This document shows positions 1-5,988 of a stretch of 5,988 nucleotides of DNA, one piece after another. The translations under genes were made by a program, and so were the position numbers. Source of the stretch: a virus (lineage: Duplodnaviria > Heunggongvirae > Uroviricota > Caudoviricetes); IMG/VR virus record IMGVR_UViG_2778260995_000009, positions 1 to 5,988 of that record. One strand, 5' to 3'. The first letter of the stretch is position 1, and each line of letters begins with the position of its first letter. The notes below the pieces were generated by a model, which saw only the letters and a list, made by a program, of their open reading frames with translations, was not told the origin of the DNA and did not search any database.

Positions 1-582
1 GAATTATCGCTGGCTGAATTATCCTGGTGGGCGGTCTGCAATCAGGTGGCGGACGCGCTACCAGAGGCAGCATTACGCCGTTCGCTGGGGTTGCGTGCGG
101 AAAAAATCCGCTCAATGTACCGTGAAAGCGACATCGTACCGGGAGAGCAGACCGCCACCAGCATACTGAAGCAGCGCACAAAAAATATTGCGCCGTTGCC
201 TCACGCCCACCAGCAACAGAATCCACCACAGGAAAAGACGGTGGTCAGCATTGCCGTTGATCCGGAGTCACCGGCTCAGTATCTCCAGCGCCAGAAACCA
301 CAACGGGAAGAGATGCCTGTATACACGCGTTGGGTAAAAACGCAGAAATGCATGACGTGTGGCAATCAGGCAGATGATCCGCATCACATCATGGGTCATG
401 GACTGGGAGGGATGGGAACAAAGGCTGATGATTTGTTTGTTATTCCGCTGTGCCGTAAATGCCATAGCGAACTACACGCCGGGGTAAAAGATTTTGAAGA
501 AAAACACGGCAGCCAGCTGTTGTTGCTGATTCGTTTTTTAATGCACGCGAGAAATTCGGGTGTCCTGAAGTGGAAAGCATGA
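1..582 (+). CDS. NinG/DUF968-like phage protein with HNH-type zinc-finger motif (5' partial; frame is open from base 1)
   Basis: Frame 1 has no stop from position 1, so the gene begins upstream of the window. C-terminal motif CMTCG...DDPHHI...PLCRKCHSELH is a Cys/His HNH-like signature typical of DUF968 proteins found before rusA in lambdoid prophages. Stop TGA at 580-582 overlaps the rusA ATG region. Confidence 0.6.
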   Translation, partial: ELSLAELSWWAVCNQVADALPEAALRRSLGLRAEKIRSMYRESDIVPGEQTATSILKQRTKNIAPLPHAHQQQNPPQEKTVVSIAVDPESPAQYLQRQKPQREEMPVYTRWVKTQKCMTCGNQADDPHHIMGHGLGGMGTKADDLFVIPLCRKCHSELHAGVKDFEEKHGSQLLLLIRFLMHARNSGVLKWKA

Positions 583-948
583 ATGACTGAACGCATAGAA
601 TTTGTTTTGCCTTACCCGCCAACGGTGAACACTTACTGGCGACGTCGTGGCAGCACATATTTTGTATCAAAAGCCGGTGAGCGTTATCGCCGTGATGTGG
701 CGCTTATTGTTCGCCAGCAGCGACTGAAATTAAACCTGTCCGGACGGCTGGCGATAAAGATTATTGCAGAGCCACCGGATAAACGTCGTCGTGACCTGGA
801 CAATATCCTGAAAGCACCACTGGATGCGCTGACGCATGCCGGACTTCTCATAGACGACGAGCAGTTTGATGAAATCAATATTGTGCGCGGTCAGCTCGTT
901 CCTGGGGGGCGGCTGGGCGTGAAGATTTACAAAATTGAGAGTGAGTGA
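583..948 (+). CDS. rusA: Holliday junction resolvase RusA (crossover junction endodeoxyribonuclease)
   Basis: 121 aa, with LPYPPTVNTYWRRRG near the N-terminus, PDKRRRDLDN, DALTHAG, IDDEQ and GGRL matching my recollection of E. coli RusA (120 aa) including the acidic catalytic cluster. ATG at 583 immediately follows the upstream stop. Confidence 0.9.
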   Translation: MTERIEFVLPYPPTVNTYWRRRGSTYFVSKAGERYRRDVALIVRQQRLKLNLSGRLAIKIIAEPPDKRRRDLDNILKAPLDALTHAGLLIDDEQFDEINIVRGQLVPGGRLGVKIYKIESE

Positions 949-1502
949 TCGTAAATATGATATACCCGGAAATTACAGGCAAAAGCGGCGAGCATTTACG
1001 TCTAAAAACGCTGGAAGCCGTCTGGATCCAGGGGAAATTACGGATGTGGGGGCGTTGGTCGTACATAGGTGGTGGCAAACCAGGAAATATGTTCAATCAG
1101 TTGCTGGCATCCAAAACACTTACAAAAACTGCGATCAATGAAGCTCTGCGCAGAATAAAAAAATCAGGGATTGATAAAACTGAGCTGGAAGCGTTTTTGC
1201 GTGAGATGATCAACAGCAAGCAAAAGAGCGGGCTGGCTTATTGTACTGATGCCGAGGCGTTATGTATCGATCGGGTAATTAGTGAAGTGTTGGCAGAGCA
1301 TCCGGGATTGATTTGTATCCTCCGACAAAGATATGAAGGGCTGGGTATGAGCAAGCTGAAAATGGCAGAACAGTTAAAAAAGAATCACCCTGACTGGAGC
1401 CTGAAAACTTGTAGAAATCGCATTGATGTTTGGTTGGCGATGGCTGAAACCATGCTTTTCCTTCCAATGTGCGTGGCACTTCGGTGCTTTTCTGATAACT
1501 GA
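945..1502 (+). CDS. Late-gene antitermination protein Q (phage 82 / DLP12 QuuD-like family)
   Basis: Position directly after rusA. Motifs W..W near the N-terminus, CTDAEALCIDRV and a C-terminal helical region resemble QuuD-type Q proteins. Start is uncertain: GTG at 945 overlaps the rusA stop, alternative ATG at 957. Stop TGA at 1500-1502. Confidence 0.7.
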   Translation: MIVNMIYPEITGKSGEHLRLKTLEAVWIQGKLRMWGRWSYIGGGKPGNMFNQLLASKTLTKTAINEALRRIKKSGIDKTELEAFLREMINSKQKSGLAYCTDAEALCIDRVISEVLAEHPGLICILRQRYEGLGMSKLKMAEQLKKNHPDWSLKTCRNRIDVWLAMAETMLFLPMCVALRCFSDN

Positions 1503-1531
1503 TGATAGAAGTGCATCAGCTATCAATCTTG

Positions 1532-1560
1532 TTGACGTTCATCAAGGTCTGGACAATACT
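1532..1560 (+). promoter_or_regulatory. Sigma70-like promoter candidate: -35 TTGACG (1532-1537), 17-bp spacer, -10 AATACT (1555-1560)
   Basis: Hexamers and spacing read directly from sequence; lies between Q stop and the ATPase start. Could be the cassette's own promoter or the Q-dependent late promoter pR'. Confidence 0.3.
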
Positions 1561-1591
1561 TACGTTAAGTTCCAACATATGGAAGATAAGA

Positions 1592-2782
1592 ATGATATTT
1601 ACACGATTGAGATTTATCAATTTGTACGCTTTTGAGGATGCAGAGCTTAACCTGTCCTATCCAAGGAAACCTGTAAACATGCCTCTTGATGGGGAGTTTT
1701 TGGCTGGACGGCCTAAATTTTACTATAAAAAAGTCTGTATCATAACGGGGGGAAATGCTTCAGGTAAGACGTCACTAGGGCGAATTCTTTGTGGAATTCA
1801 GGTGTTTCTAAGAACCAAAGAGTTGCGGAGTAATCTGCGAGTGAATAATAAAAATAATGATGCTTCGTTTGAAGTGGACTTTGCTACGGAGGATCATTTT
1901 CATCATCGTTTGTATGTACGCTTTGCTACCAGTGAAGGCGGAGCGCACATAATCAAAGAAATTAAATATGGTTTTGTTCAAATAGCATTAAATGATTCTT
2001 GCCATAAAACCACAGAAAAACTGAATCAACTCTTTTCTGGAAGGGCCCCAGAAGATACAGAATATTTTTTTCAGGAACTAGCTACTGATAGCGAACCAGT
2101 TGTATTGGAGTTTTTCAAGCAACTTAAGTTTTTTGGTGGATGGTACTATTTGTTGTCTGAAACTAAAGAGAGTACCACTGCAATTTCAGGAATGAATAAA
2201 AATATTCTTGAAAGGATAATTCGCACTTTCGATTCAAGTATTATAGGAGTTACCGAGATGCTGGAGTCTGAAAGTGACGGGGATGAAAATAAATCATCTG
2301 CGGTTTATCTGATTAAATTTAAAAACTCTGATTCTCTTGTCGTTACCAGTAAAGGTGAAATAATTAACTCAGACCGTCTTTCTCGAGGAACATACGAGGC
2401 AGTGACGGTAGCGCATTTTATAAGCGCTATTATCTCTGATTGTGAAAGACTAGGTAAGCAATCTCTAATACCATCAATGACTTATTTTCTTGACGAGAAA
2501 TTGGCTTATACACATTCAGAGTTAGAGCGTATGATTGTGGCGCTGATTATATCTAATTTGAAAGAAAATACTCAGTTTTTCTATACAACGCATAACATGG
2601 ATATTTTTGAGTTGGATCTGCCTGTTCACTCGTTCATTTTTATTAAAAAAACGAAAGACTATTCGGAGTTTGTTGAAGCAAATTCAGTTGTTAAAAAAAA
2701 TGACCGTAGCATGCGAAACGCTGTTGAGAGAGATGTCTTTGGTGTCTTACCTGACACATCATTAGTATCGGAGCTACTCTGA
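1592..2782 (+). CDS. ABC/OLD-family P-loop ATPase (AAA_15/AAA_21-like), component A of a candidate two-gene defence cassette
   Basis: Walker A GGNASGKTS (codons at 1748-1771), Walker B YFLDE (2483-2497) and H-loop-like YTTHN (about 2581-2595) in the order expected for ABC-type ATPases. N-terminus MIFTRLRFINLYAF fits the usual start of this family. GGAAG Shine-Dalgarno at 1581-1585. The ORF track's 1502 start adds 30 implausible hydrophobic residues overlapping the promoter-like element. Gene is markedly AT-rich. Confidence 0.8.
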   Translation: MIFTRLRFINLYAFEDAELNLSYPRKPVNMPLDGEFLAGRPKFYYKKVCIITGGNASGKTSLGRILCGIQVFLRTKELRSNLRVNNKNNDASFEVDFATEDHFHHRLYVRFATSEGGAHIIKEIKYGFVQIALNDSCHKTTEKLNQLFSGRAPEDTEYFFQELATDSEPVVLEFFKQLKFFGGWYYLLSETKESTTAISGMNKNILERIIRTFDSSIIGVTEMLESESDGDENKSSAVYLIKFKNSDSLVVTSKGEIINSDRLSRGTYEAVTVAHFISAIISDCERLGKQSLIPSMTYFLDEKLAYTHSELERMIVALIISNLKENTQFFYTTHNMDIFELDLPVHSFIFIKKTKDYSEFVEANSVVKKNDRSMRNAVERDVFGVLPDTSLVSELL

Positions 2783-3315
2783 TGGCGGGGTTGTCTAAAA
2801 TAAGAATAATTTTTGTCGAAGGTGAAACAGAAAACTCTCTTTTTCTGAAGATGAAACAACAGAGAGTTATTGATGCCAAATCAATTGTAAAAAGAAACTT
2901 TTGGCAAGAGAGCATAAGAAATTATGCGATTACTATTCCGAAGGGAAGTGATATACTAATTGTCTTTGATAGTGATGAAGTGGAGCAATCTGCAAGATTC
3001 ATTGAAAATGTAAAGTTCCTTAAAAACAGAGGGCATAAAGTTTATCTTTTGCAGCAGAAAAGAAATTTTGAGGAGGAGTTGGCCTGGTGTTGCGGAATTC
3101 CTGTAAAAAAACTAATTGCTGGGTTCTGTGCAAAAAAAACATCGGGTATAAATGATTTCAAGAGAGATTTTATTGCTTGTAACAATCAACTTTCAAAGTT
3201 ACTGAAAATGGGCATGCAGGAAACTAAGTGGTTTACAAGAGATTTACATGCTGTATTGGAGCCTGTTGCAAGTTTTAAGTCATCTTTTTCTAAACATTTC
3301 AGGTTAACAAGATGA
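2782..3315 (+). CDS. Small TOPRIM-like protein (RloB/DUF4276/AriB-like nuclease candidate), component B of the defence cassette
   Basis: 177 aa. N-terminal IIFVEGETE (conserved Glu codons at 2818-2820 and 2824-2826) followed by ILIVFDSDE (DxD) matches the TOPRIM Glu plus DxD metal-binding arrangement. Start ATG overlaps the ATPase stop (TGATGG at 2780-2785); GGAG Shine-Dalgarno at 2770-2773. AT-rich like the ATPase. Confidence 0.7.
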   Translation: MAGLSKIRIIFVEGETENSLFLKMKQQRVIDAKSIVKRNFWQESIRNYAITIPKGSDILIVFDSDEVEQSARFIENVKFLKNRGHKVYLLQQKRNFEEELAWCCGIPVKKLIAGFCAKKTSGINDFKRDFIACNNQLSKLLKMGMQETKWFTRDLHAVLEPVASFKSSFSKHFRLTR

Positions 3316-3597
3316 TTTATTTTCTTTTTTGTTCAGCTGATTGTTTTTGTTTGTAAAATGTCTTGATTTTTTGCCAATAAACTGTTTCAATCCAGCTACG
3401 CTTCGCAAAGCTGTACCGCGAGGCGAATAGCAGACATGGACACCTGAAAGAATCCGCTTTATGCGAGTTTTTTTATGCCTGAAAAACGGCACAGAACATT
3501 AAACGCGCTGGTAGTTGTGAATACTGGTCTTTCAGCTTGCTGGCTTTTTCGACAAGAGGTATTGGTATATCACGTTAACCAGAAAAGGGGAAAAGGC

Positions 3598-3795
3598 ATG
3601 CTAAAACAGCAGGATATGACCGAAACCGCCAGAGTGGTGTTTAATGAATTAAGCGTCACCGAACCGGCGACCGTCGGGGAAATTGCGCAGAATACTTACC
3701 TTTCACGCGAACGCTGCCAGTTAATACTGACTCAGCTTGTTATGGCGGGTCTGGCAGATTATCAGTTCGGTTGTTACAGACGCCTTCCTCAGTGA
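3598..3795 (+). CDS. Small hypothetical protein (65 aa) with predicted helix-turn-helix / winged-helix character
   Basis: ATG at 3598 preceded by purine-rich Shine-Dalgarno AAAAGGGGAAAAGG. Segment TVGEIAQNTYLSRERCQLILTQLVMAGLA looks like an HTH recognition unit. The track's longer ORF from 3475 has no RBS and an implausible N-terminus. Fold assignment is inference only. Confidence 0.45.
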   Translation: MLKQQDMTETARVVFNELSVTEPATVGEIAQNTYLSRERCQLILTQLVMAGLADYQFGCYRRLPQ

Positions 3796-3850
3796 AGGTT
3801 TTTTAATTTGTGGTAATGGGCGGCTGGTGGGTGTTAGCGGCACCTGCCAG

Positions 3851-3899
3851 CCATCTGCTCATGCGTTGGGGTCACAAGCAAACCTCAGGCCCATCTGCT
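3851..3899 (+). repeat. Two direct repeats CCATCTGCT (3851-3859 and 3891-3899), 40-bp period, each followed by (A)TGCG
   Basis: Read directly from sequence; located in the intergenic region between the small HTH gene and the methyltransferase start, so possibly operator-like sites. Confidence 0.3.
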
Positions 3900-3945
3900 T
3901 TGCGCAAAAGCGGTATGAGCCTATCAGAGAAGTGCTTATTGATCT

Positions 3946-4995
3946 ATGGCCAATACTGTAAAAATATCCAGTTGTGAGTTAATCAACGCTGATTGCCTGG
4001 AATTTATCCAGACCTTACCGGAAAATTCTGTCGATCTGATAGTCACAGACCCGCCATACTTTAAAGTGAAGCCCGAGGGCTGGGATAACCAGTGGGAGGG
4101 CGACGATGATTACCTGAAATGGCTGGACCAGTGTCTGGCGCAGTTCTGGCGGGTACTGAAGCCTACCGGAAGTCTTTACCTGTTCTGTGGTCATCGCCTG
4201 GCATCTGACACCGAAATCATGATGCGTGAGCGCTTTAATGTGCTGAACCACATTATCTGGGCGAAGCCGTCCGGACGCTGGAACGGGTGCAATAAGGAAA
4301 GTCTGCGGGCGTATTTTCCGGCAACAGAGCGCATTCTGTTTGCAGAACATTATCAGGGACCGTATCGCCCGAAAGATGATGGCTATGTGGCACAGGGGCG
4401 CGAGCTAAAACAGCACGTCATGGCCCCGCTGATTTCTTACTTTCGTGATGCGCGTAAATCACTGGGAATAACGTCAAAACAGATAGCGGAAGCCACCGGA
4501 AAGAAAAACATGGCTTCGCACTGGTTTGGTACCAGTCAGTGGCAGTTACCGAACGAGGGTGATTACAACAAATTGCAGGCGTTGTTTGCGCGTGTTGCGG
4601 CAGAAAAACATCAGCGCGGGGAACTGGAAAAGCCACACCACCAGCTGGTCAGCACATACAGTGAGCTGAACCGGCAGTATACGGAACTGCTGAGTGAATA
4701 TAAAAATTTGCGGCGGTATTTCGGTGTGACGGCGCAGGTTCCGTACACCGATGTCTGGACGCATAAACCGGTGCAGTACTATCCAGGGAAACATCCGTGC
4801 GAAAAACCGGCAGAAATGCTGCAGCAGATAATCAACGCGAGCAGTCGTCCGGGAGACCTGGTTGCAGATTTTTTTATGGGTTCAGGTTCAACGGTAAAAG
4901 CGGCGATGGCACTGGGGCGTTGTGCGATTGGTGTTGAGCTGGAGACAGGACGTTTTGAACAGACAGTCAGGGAAGTTCAGGATTTAATCGTTTGA
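3946..4995 (+). CDS. DNA N6-adenine methyltransferase (beta-class, motif IV before motif I), phage orphan-type
   Basis: DPPY catalytic motif near the N-terminus (VTDPPYF) and FxGxG SAM-binding motif near the C-terminus (DFFMGSGST). This order and spacing is typical of phage-encoded N6A methyltransferases. An in-frame TGA immediately upstream fixes the start at 3946. Confidence 0.85.
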   Translation: MANTVKISSCELINADCLEFIQTLPENSVDLIVTDPPYFKVKPEGWDNQWEGDDDYLKWLDQCLAQFWRVLKPTGSLYLFCGHRLASDTEIMMRERFNVLNHIIWAKPSGRWNGCNKESLRAYFPATERILFAEHYQGPYRPKDDGYVAQGRELKQHVMAPLISYFRDARKSLGITSKQIAEATGKKNMASHWFGTSQWQLPNEGDYNKLQALFARVAAEKHQRGELEKPHHQLVSTYSELNRQYTELLSEYKNLRRYFGVTAQVPYTDVWTHKPVQYYPGKHPCEKPAEMLQQIINASSRPGDLVADFFMGSGSTVKAAMALGRCAIGVELETGRFEQTVREVQDLIV

Positions 4996-5044
4996 AACGG
5001 ATGAGATTGCAGAATTAATTACGCACCATTATTATTCTGCTCCC

Positions 5045-5120
5045 GGCCCTTTAGCTCAGTGGTGAGAGCGAGCGACTCATAATCGCCAGGTCGCTGGTTC
5101 AAATCCAGCAAGGGCCACCA
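5045..5120 (+). tRNA. ileZ: tRNA-Ile2 (anticodon CAU, lysidine type; ileZ-like), 76 nt with encoded CCA
   Basis: Hand-folded cloverleaf: acceptor GGCCCTT/AAGGGCC, D arm GCTC/GAGC, anticodon loop CTCATAA (CAT at 5078-5080), T arm GCTGG-TTCAAAT-CCAGC. Resembles E. coli ileX/ileY. CAU could also be Met; Ile2 is inferred from similarity. Confidence 0.85.
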
Positions 5121-5127
5121 TCACATA

Positions 5128-5204
5128 CCGCCATTAGCTCATCAGGATAGAGCGCCAGCCTTCGAAGCTGGTTGCGCGGGGTTCGAGTCCTCGATGGCGG
5201 TCCA
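5128..5204 (+). tRNA. argN: tRNA-Arg (anticodon UCG), 77 nt with encoded CCA
   Basis: Hand-folded: acceptor CCGCCAT/ATGGCGG, anticodon stem CCAGC/GCTGG with loop CTTCGAA (TCG at 5162-5164), T arm CGGGG-TTCGAGT-CCTCG. The C1-G72 start is unusual, so the 5' end could be off by 1-2 nt. Gene symbol assigned by position only. Confidence 0.75.
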
Positions 5205-5217
5205 TTATCTGTACCCT

Positions 5218-5294
5218 GCGTTGTTAGCTCAGCCGGACAGAGCAATTGCCTTCTAAGCAATCGGTCACTGGTTCGAATCCAGTACAACGCGCCA
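5218..5294 (+). tRNA. argO: tRNA-Arg (anticodon UCU), 77 nt with encoded CCA
   Basis: Hand-folded: acceptor GCGTTGT/ACAACGC, anticodon stem ATTGC/GCAAT with loop CTTCTAA (TCT at 5252-5254), T arm ACTGG-TTCGAAT-CCAGT. Gene symbol assigned by position only. Confidence 0.8.
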
Positions 5295-5444
5295 CGCTTA
5301 TTTTTCCAGGCTCGCTTTGGCGGGTCTTTTTCATATCCGCGTCACGTCAGGCGCACATCAAACAAACACAGAATCTTTCAGGGGCGGGGTAGTCAGTGTG
5401 ACGTTCTCTGGAGACCTGTCACTTCCGGGGATAGGTGTTTTTAC

Positions 5445-5468
5445 GGGCTGCTGGTGGCCCTTTTTTAT
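5445..5468 (+). terminator. Possible intrinsic terminator: GGGC...GCCC short stem followed by TTTTTTATTT
   Basis: GGGCTGCTGGTGGCCC (5445-5460) then a T-run at 5461-5470. The stem is only about 4 bp, so this is weak. Confidence 0.25.
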
Positions 5469-5485
5469 TTACAGGAGAAAGAAGT

Positions 5486-5878
5486 ATGTCTGAACCCTTA
5501 TCCGGTTCCGGTACGGCTGCGGCGCTCGGCGGGGCGACGGTATTCGGGCTGTTTACCGGAACGGATTTCGGGATTGTGTTTGGTGCATTCGCCGGGGCGT
5601 TGTTCGTGGCCACGATGCCGCAGGCGTTTTCAGGCTGGCGAGTGGCAGCACATTTTCTGGTGTCATTTATTGTTGGCGTGCTGGGTGCACGTGCGTTGTC
5701 AGCCTGGGTTGCATCAAAAACAGGTTATGACGGTACATCGGCGGATGCACTGTGTGCGGTGCTGGTGTCAGTGATGTCGGTAAAGATTCTGGCATTCATC
5801 CACCAGCAGGATATTGCAGCGCTGATATCCGGTTTGTTCTCCCGCCTGCGGAGTGGAGGTGGTGGCAATGCCAGATAA
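5486..5878 (+). CDS. Hypothetical Gly/Ala-rich membrane protein, possible holin-like lysis protein
   Basis: ATG at 5486 with strong Shine-Dalgarno AGGAGA (5473-5478). Several hydrophobic Gly/Ala-rich stretches (GGATVFGLFTG, IVFGAFAGALFVA, FLVSFIVGVLGA). Sits where lambdoid phages place lysis genes. No specific family recognised. Confidence 0.45.
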   Translation: MSEPLSGSGTAAALGGATVFGLFTGTDFGIVFGAFAGALFVATMPQAFSGWRVAAHFLVSFIVGVLGARALSAWVASKTGYDGTSADALCAVLVSVMSVKILAFIHQQDIAALISGLFSRLRSGGGGNAR

Positions 5879-5988
5879 CCTTTCTGAATTACTGAACGTG
5901 GCGTTATGCACGGTTATCGTGCTGACGCTCTTTTTTTATCGTCGCCGTGATTCCAGACATAAACCGCTGGTGTCATGGCTGGCCTGGC
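5866..5988 (+). CDS. Small hypothetical membrane protein (3' partial, runs off window), start overlapping upstream stop
   Basis: ATG at 5866 overlaps the preceding gene's 3' end (stop TAA 5876-5878). Hydrophobic stretch VALCTVIVLTLFFY followed by RRRDSRHK fits a single-pass membrane topology. Not in the ORF track because it is truncated. Confidence 0.3.

Follow-up and report, generated by a model that had tools for sequence, protein, structure and literature searches.

The analysed window, a 5,988-nucleotide (nt) stretch of DNA (positions 1 to 5,988 of the IMG/VR virus record IMGVR_UViG_2778260995_000009, assigned to the Caudoviricetes), is the late-regulatory region of a lambdoid Escherichia coli prophage. 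One segment of it (1448–3361) is probably an acquired two-gene abortive-infection module, toxin-antitoxin-like in organization, that combines an ATP-binding cassette (ABC) ATPase with an OLD-type TOPRIM nuclease and that is closest to AbiL and built like PARIS. The first gene encodes a 396-amino-acid (aa), AbiLi-like ABC-type ATPase (1592–2782, plus strand), the proposed sensor and antitoxin, and the second a 177-aa mini OLD-type TOPRIM protein (2782–3315, plus strand), the proposed nuclease effector and toxin. Two-gene systems of an ABC ATPase and an OLD-type TOPRIM protein are an already known kind (AbiL, PARIS, RloAB, MADS3-4), and the pair described here is most likely a divergent, AbiL-like member of the AbiL/PARIS-type anti-phage gene pairs.

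Gene coupling and the family of small proteins

A first-pass annotation, made from the letters of the window, had singled out the 177-aa reading frame for carrying a glutamate motif and a DxD-type motif about 50 residues apart, and both motifs are present as described: IIFVEGETE spans residues 9–17 and VFDSDE residues 61–66, with 50 residues from E13 to D63. The translational coupling it reported is also there. The stop codon of the ATPase gene (TGA, 2780–2782) and the start codon of the TOPRIM gene (ATG, 2782–2784) have one base in common in a TGATG overlap (2780–2784, plus strand), and a GGAG Shine-Dalgarno sequence (2770–2773, plus strand), 8 nt ahead of that ATG, is contained in the terminal part of the ATPase gene. 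A homologous ATPase gene was found directly upstream and on the same strand, its end only a few bases from the TOPRIM start, in 19 of the 19 loci with upstream DNA available, drawn from E. coli, Erwinia, Klebsiella, Acinetobacter, Oligella, Actinobacillus, Clostridiales, a sponge-associated metagenome-assembled genome and IMG/VR viral contigs, with junctions of −4 to +3 nt in the Clostridiales, Oligella, Klebsiella and Acinetobacter loci. A search for related loci using an 18-sequence alignment recovered four genome loci and 12 loci on IMG/VR viral contigs. The linkage is obligate in these loci; that the two proteins act as effector and sensor, as first proposed, is suggested by analogy with characterized pairs.

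Homologues of the 177-aa protein with 51–76% full-length identity are present in other E. coli as well as in Erwinia, Kluyvera and Leclercia, with remoter homologues in Acinetobacter and Clostridiales; no Pfam domains were found in these homologues, every one of which is named ‘hypothetical protein’. An exhaustive profile search of 1.84 billion representatives, counted as clusters at 50% identity, yielded 626 clusters at an expect value (E) ≤ 0.001 and 388 at E ≤ 1e-10, nearly all of 160–190 aa. A length of ~170 aa being typical across the family, the window protein is no truncated exception, and the description of it as unusually small gives way to that of a protein of normal size for its whole family. 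The best 150 family representatives range from 85 to 212 aa, too short for an added ATPase. A second search, with a 140-sequence profile, returned 543 proteins at E ≤ 0.001, and among the 120 of these that were listed there was no Pfam label or name and no bridge to annotated families. Searches of plasmid and phage collections with the 177-aa protein and the ATPase (tblastn) matched one Acinetobacter plasmid and one Acinetobacter phage and no lactococcal AbiL, and tblastn with the family consensus gave no match.

Conserved residues and a putative two-metal site

Residue conservation was counted in a 140-sequence family alignment with 23% mean identity (all motifs of the pair given below are on the plus strand). 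In E13-G14-E15-T16-E17 (2818–2832), which holds the TOPRIM glutamate ending β-strand 1 and the acidic residue at the E+4 position, E13 was kept in 139 of 140 sequences, G14 in all 140 and E17 in 135, with aspartate in the other five. The DxD motif ending β-strand 3, D63-S-D65 (2968–2976), was as strongly constrained (D63, 138/140; D65, 140/140). The acidic residues proposed in the first-pass annotation were E13, E15, E17, D63 and D65; four of them are near-invariant and are placed by a weak alignment on counterparts in P2 Old, and E15 drops out, being kept in just 89 of 140 sequences with Q, D or K elsewhere. To judge from the alignment, E17, not E15, is the second acidic residue, in the same E+4 position as E404 of Burkholderia OLD. 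Three further residues, N39 (2896–2898), N76 (3007–3009) and Q92 (3055–3057), were each kept in at least 90% of the 140 sequences and lie outside the published OLD and AriB catalytic sets; these may serve in substrate binding or stand in for the TOPRIM glycine after strand 2.

The C-terminal half carries two further invariant motifs, N-[FL]-E-[DE]-E and F-K. The former (N95-F-E97-E-E99, 3064–3078; N95, 132/140; E97, 139/140; E99, 139/140) is positioned at the start of the first helix past strand 4 and is the proposed second-metal site, while the latter (F126-K127, 3157–3162; F126, 130/140; K127, 139/140) lies within helix 123–132 and holds the proposed catalytic lysine. In Burkholderia OLD, metal A is bound by E400, D455 and D457 and metal B by E404, T506 and E508, the last two from the first helix of the ‘helical domain’, with K562 as a catalytic lysine contributed by a later helix (PMC6755086); the corresponding residue set in AriB is E26, D30, D88, E90 and E122 (PMC11464382). 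The family pattern ExxxE / DxD / NxE / K parallels the OLD two-metal set ExxxE / DxD / TxE / K, and the gap from D65 to E97 is 32 residues, equal to that from E90 to E122 in AriB. Because the conserved residues copy the OLD set, the C-terminal half probably completes the active site, and residues ~95–165 can be read as a shortened equivalent of the helical domain of OLD. The pairing of N95-x-E97 with T506-x-E508 and AriB E122, and of K127 with K562, is inferred from pattern, spacing and predicted secondary structure rather than from a superposition. The same half had initially been suggested to be an unrecognized specificity or partner-binding region, for which the helical-domain counterpart, with N95-x-E97 and K127, offers the better reading.

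Predicted fold and similarity to TOPRIM and OLD proteins

The AlphaFold2 model of the 177-aa protein, built with 18 homologues (predicted local distance difference test [pLDDT], 90.1; predicted template modelling score, 0.85), has strands at residues 8–12, 34–37, 57–63 and 86–92, with helices between them at 15–26, 46–49 (short) and 67–82, and five helices past the last strand (96–104, 108–115, 123–132, 136–142 and 157–165). This predicted order of strand-helix-strand-helix-strand-helix-strand followed by a helical tail is the TOPRIM topology, with E13 and D63xD65 at the TOPRIM positions of the model.

Profile scans of the 140 family members taken singly, in which models matched by at least two members were listed, returned TOPRIM-type families recurrently. 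The PADLOC model AbiLii (PDLC02337) was matched by 67 of 140 members at E ≤ 0.01 (best, 5.9e-7), with GajA (two members) and the uncharacterized candidates HEC-01B and PDC-M38B as the other PADLOC models. Among Pfam models, below threshold, OLD-like_TOPRIM was matched by 10 members, OLD-like_TOPRIM_1 by four, RloB by four, DUF3226 by three, and Toprim and Toprim_2 by two each. For close homologues, residues 8–27 fell on positions 5–24 of the 67-position OLD-like_TOPRIM model and, in some, residues 9–90 fell on positions 2–103 of the RloB model; the matches begin at the N-termini of the models, so that the register is as expected. The assignment to a small TOPRIM-type protein made at first reading was therefore upheld by the near-invariant E13 and DxD at strand ends together with these recurrent sub-threshold matches, and from its sequence the 177-aa protein has the appearance of a compact OLD/TOPRIM-type nuclease that depends on metal.

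Several results weigh against this assignment. None of the profile matches of the window protein attains a curated cut-off: there are none in Pfam or NCBIfam, and the match to PADLOC AbiLii is remote (E = 0.0015). No TOPRIM protein came up when PDB sequences were searched with HMMER profiles of the 18- and 140-sequence alignments, the matches being chance ones (a RAD GTPase, a designed protein, eIF4A). The alignment of the family with P2 Old by hhalign was weak (E = 0.004, probability 8%), but its register is the right one and to that extent favours the assignment, placing E13, G14 and E17 over P2 Old E398, G399 and E402, and D63 and D65 over D453 and D455; the P2 Old alignment was shallow, the relatives in viral contigs being too close to each other for a deep profile. 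Foldseek of the model against the PDB did not by itself settle the fold, returning nothing at E ≤ 0.001 and a DnaG TOPRIM domain at rank 5.

The top structural neighbours by score were generic Rossmann-like folds which, along with the lack of a curated TOPRIM model above threshold, would also suit a non-catalytic TOPRIM- or Rossmann-like adaptor, such as a nucleotide- or metal-binding regulator of the ATPase, with the ATPase or an unlinked factor as the effector. However, five acidic residues and a lysine that are near-invariant over 140 divergent sequences, in the OLD/AriB pattern, are hard to explain without catalysis or metal binding, and the ATPase itself lacks a nuclease domain, making an adaptor role very improbable.

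The partner ATPase

The ATPase has the motifs of an ABC-type enzyme, as assessed in an alignment of 58 homologues. The Walker A motif or P-loop, G53-G-N-A-S-G-K-T60 (1748–1771), has N55, G58, K59 and T60 invariant and G53, A56 and S57 conserved in at least 90% of sequences; an ABC signature-like motif, R262-L-S-R-G-T267 (2375–2392), has R262, S264, G266 and T267 invariant (RxSxGT); both residues of D301-E302 in ‘YFLDE’ (2492–2497), the Walker B aspartate followed by the catalytic glutamate, are invariant; and in the H-loop region, T332-T-H334-N335 (2585–2596), T332, H334 and N335 are invariant, with T333 kept in at least 90%. The AlphaFold2 model (pLDDT, 86.8) has a predicted ABC-ATPase fold, with Foldseek matches in the PDB to Rad50/SMC heads, PtuA (a protein of Septu and retron systems) and Thermus OLD at E values from 3e-10 to 2e-8. 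Pfam AAA_15, AAA_21 and SMC_N matched below threshold.

The PADLOC model AbiLi (PDLC02335) matched the ATPase at E = 7.6e-26 (88.9 bits; residues 26–420 of the long open reading frame [ORF]), with weaker matches to mad3 (5e-11), AriA (1.5e-7) and also PtuA. By this profile, the ATPase comes within PADLOC's definition of AbiLi. A start at the first in-frame ATG (1502) would give a protein of 426 aa and was rejected, RefSeq and the MIFTRL N-termini of the 58 homologues giving 1592. The ATG at 1502 overlaps the stop codon of the preceding DUF1133 gene, and one database cluster (P0287) also has the long form.

Comparison with known two-gene systems

The pair resembles AbiL as a two-gene operon of an ABC ATPase followed by a small OLD-type TOPRIM protein carried on mobile elements, in the strength of the AbiLi match, and in that AbiLii was the sole PADLOC model matched by many family members. 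It differs in that the effector matches the PADLOC model of AbiLii remotely, even for the best member, and in residing in an enterobacterial prophage as opposed to a lactococcal plasmid.

Like the pair, PARIS (AriA and AriB, class 4 OLD-like), which phages or satellites often encode, keeps its ABC ATPase sensor and TOPRIM effector as separate proteins; the two also share an acidic pattern of E, an acidic residue at +4, DxD/E and a further E 32 residues on. By contrast, AriB is a protein of ~35 kDa with DxE in place of the DxD of the 177-aa protein, and the ATPase scores 1.5e-7 on AriA models as against 7.6e-26 on AbiLi. Neither PADLOC AriB nor DUF4435 was among the reported matches of the 177-aa protein or of the family scans and, on these profile results, the pair is not PARIS.

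The OLD nucleases, namely P2 Old (class 1) and Gabija GajA and Burkholderia OLD (class 2), have the same proposed series of Glu, Glu+4, DxD, [T/N]xE and a helical-region Lys; a Klebsiella homologue of the pair occupies the old/tin slot of a P2-like prophage, and the ATPase fold matches Thermus OLD. Unlike the OLD nucleases, in which ATPase and TOPRIM form one polypeptide of ~590 aa, the functions here are divided over two genes with a nuclease part of 177 aa, whose sequence similarity to them is sub-threshold. RloB (Pfam PF13707), in RloAB, is likewise a small TOPRIM-type protein paired with an AAA ATPase. The window protein itself had no match to the RloB profile, the best close homologues reached 16.6–17.4 bits against a gathering threshold of 31.5, and the four matching family members did so at E < 0.01. 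DUF4276 gave no match for the window protein and was absent from the top 25 families reported in the 18- and 140-member scans. On these profiles the 177-aa protein is neither RloB nor DUF4276. Of the three comparisons suggested in the first-pass annotation (RloB, DUF4276 and AriB), only the one with RloB thus found a trace, at ~17 bits. Lastly, the NetFlax TOPRIM_OLD : AAA (D29) pairs are alike by description, as small TOPRIM_OLD proteins with an adjacent AAA ATPase; these small TOPRIM_OLD toxins are toxic in E. coli and neutralized by the cognate AAA ATPase (PMC10440598).

It is a tentative possibility that the ~170-aa proteins form a distinct ‘minimal OLD’ branch of the split OLD-like systems, with a complete two-metal site and a trigger and nucleic-acid target of their own that would differ from those of AbiL, PARIS and Gabija. 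In such a branch the effector would be about half the size of AriB, and the family, with >600 clusters across the Proteobacteria and Firmicutes, is missed by Pfam and NCBIfam and marginal in PADLOC.

Insertion in a lambdoid prophage and homologous loci

The gene pair was 100% identical to that of E. coli strain E200086 and 99.9% identical to that of enterotoxigenic E. coli (ETEC) strain B7A. It lies on a cargo insert of ~1.9 kb (1448–3361, no strand assigned) that is low in guanine-cytosine (GC) content and replaces ~128 bp of sister prophages. The window aligned by blastn to a sister prophage at 91.6% over 1–1447 and at 98.7% over 3362–5153, with nothing aligned in between, and GC content in the profile was 33–39% across 1500–3450 compared to 47–56% in both flanks. 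Only seven of 5426 E. coli genomes carry the pair, while the RusA and DUF1133 flank is present in 716 complete ones. Segment 1448–3361 is rare foreign cargo in a lambdoid backbone that is itself common. Around the pair, promoter-like and terminator-like matches were no more frequent than expected by chance, and no repeats were found at the insertion borders. The left border falls within the 3′ end of the DUF1133 (Q-like antiterminator) gene (1448–1502); as similarity to the sister prophages ends at 1447, the last ~18 DUF1133 codons derive from the insert.

Homologous pairs were observed in other prophage and island settings. In a P2-like prophage of Klebsiella (loci L010/L011, 5001–6758), the ATPase and a 176-aa TOPRIM protein are flanked by portal gene Q on one side and replication gene A (gpA) on the other. 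Phage P2 has its tin and old genes at this position, so that the split mini-OLD-like module occupies the slot of the founding OLD gene. The Clostridiales pair is located a few genes downstream of a HindVP-type restriction-modification (R-M) system. In Oligella urethralis (L013, 1–4819), two further pairs of an AAA_15 ATPase and a small protein, together with a transposase, stand directly upstream of the homologous pair; the small proteins (145 and 166 aa) had no match to the TOPRIM family profile, and the locus resembles a small island in which ATPases are paired with differing effectors. Such a genomic distribution is what anti-phage cargo modules typically show.

Tight coupling and obligate pairing would also be expected of a selfish toxin-antitoxin addiction pair, with the TOPRIM protein as toxin and the ATPase as antitoxin, that stabilizes itself or the prophage and has no defence role. 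NetFlax TOPRIM_OLD/AAA pairs do behave as toxin-antitoxin systems, and one AAA-neutralized pair screened against E. coli phages gave no hits (PMC10440598); a RelE/ParE-ParD pair is also present in the same B7A prophage region. The occupation of defence hotspots (the old/tin slot, an R-M neighbour and the cluster of ATPase pairs) nevertheless speaks against pure addiction, as does the fact that all characterized relatives (AbiL, PARIS, OLD, Gabija) defend against phage, and this explanation was judged improbable.

An N6/N4 DNA methyltransferase gene (3946–4995) follows the pair at a distance of 630 bp, and the pair could in principle be an accessory of an R-M or methylation-linked system working with this methyltransferase, as is RloAB in type I R-M loci or MADS3-4. 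The mad3 match of the ATPase (5e-11), a mad4 match of one family member, and the R-M system near the Clostridiales homologue point in this direction. Yet the methyltransferase, a 65-aa ORF and the tRNA genes are backbone genes that occur in sister prophages without the pair, and for this reason the methyltransferase and tRNAs were rejected as parts of the module, as was the 65-aa ORF; further, the Klebsiella, Acinetobacter and Oligella pairs have no methyltransferase neighbour. An accessory role of this kind is scarcely credible.

Proposed mechanism and target

For the module as an abortive-infection pair, the ATPase and TOPRIM protein would be made together by way of the TGATG overlap, an oligomer of the ATPase would keep the small nuclease inactive while serving as infection sensor, and a phage cue would free or activate the nuclease. 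The template for this is PARIS, where binding of the trigger frees AriB from its sequestration by AriA (PMC11464382). The nuclease would then cut nucleic acid through two-metal catalysis, in which E13, D63 and D65 would bind metal A, while E17, N95/E97 and perhaps E99 would bind metal B and K127 would steady the transition state. The preferred target, the most conditional of these steps, would be RNA of the translation apparatus (tRNA), such that translation would halt and the infection be aborted. A target among tRNA or other translation RNA is favoured because AriB and P2 OLD are tRNases and AbiL is reported to act after phage transcription.

On the other side of the balance, the target, the trigger and the choice between inhibition and activation by the ATPase are all extrapolated from PARIS, OLD and NetFlax pairs, and with both Gabija and Vibrio class 1 OLD acting on DNA an RNA target is not secure. 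The effector could instead be a DNase or nickase, as are GajA, class 2 OLD and Vibrio class 1 OLD, that degrades or nicks phage and/or host DNA. This alternative is to be taken seriously but is the less likely one, given that PARIS, the closest architecture with a separate ATPase and TOPRIM protein, and P2 OLD are tRNases, that AbiL reportedly acts at a post-transcriptional stage, and that the 177-aa protein has no extra predicted DNA-binding domain.

Other features of the window

Upstream of the insert, the window encodes a DUF968/HNH-like protein (46–582), RusA (583–948) and a DUF1133 protein related to antiterminator Q (945–1502). Downstream of the methyltransferase gene are three tRNA genes (5045–5294), then a holin-like gene; an Rfam scan of the window found the three tRNAs and nothing else. 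The first tRNA was called tRNA-Met (CAT) by ARAGORN and is tRNA-Ile in RefSeq for strain B7A, with Arg(TCG) and Arg(TCT) as the others. The closeness of the window tRNAs to a putative tRNA-targeting nuclease is probably coincidence, but tRNAs carried by phages are known to work against PARIS and OLD. The small, conserved backbone ORF at 3475–3795 (RefSeq coding sequence equivalent, ~3598–3795; 65 aa, WP_000917767.1) had weak winged-helix matches (TrmB, 0.0076; MarR_2, 0.066), and its end is overlapped by a terminator-like hairpin (3782–3799). The B7A prophage also carries a YdaT-family toxin gene in addition to the RelE/ParE-ParD toxin-antitoxin pair, which lies at 6054–6616 of the B7A locus (L001), ~2.4 kb upstream of the left end of the window; this prophage holds several toxin-type cargo genes.

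Implications

The pair is currently annotated as ‘hypothetical protein’ and ‘ATP-binding protein’ and no more. Through its reassignment, E. coli prophages, that of ETEC strain B7A among them, gain a likely defence module as cargo, and the Q-lysis and P2 old/tin hotspots gain a further instance of resident defence genes. More broadly, >600 small proteins without a Pfam or NCBIfam model are probably the nuclease arm of AbiL/PARIS-like systems. No new class of biology is involved, and the value lies in annotation and in a tractable minimal enzyme: with the full OLD-type signature in 177 aa, the protein would offer a compact model for how ABC ATPases restrain and release TOPRIM nucleases, and for what decides between tRNA and DNA targets.

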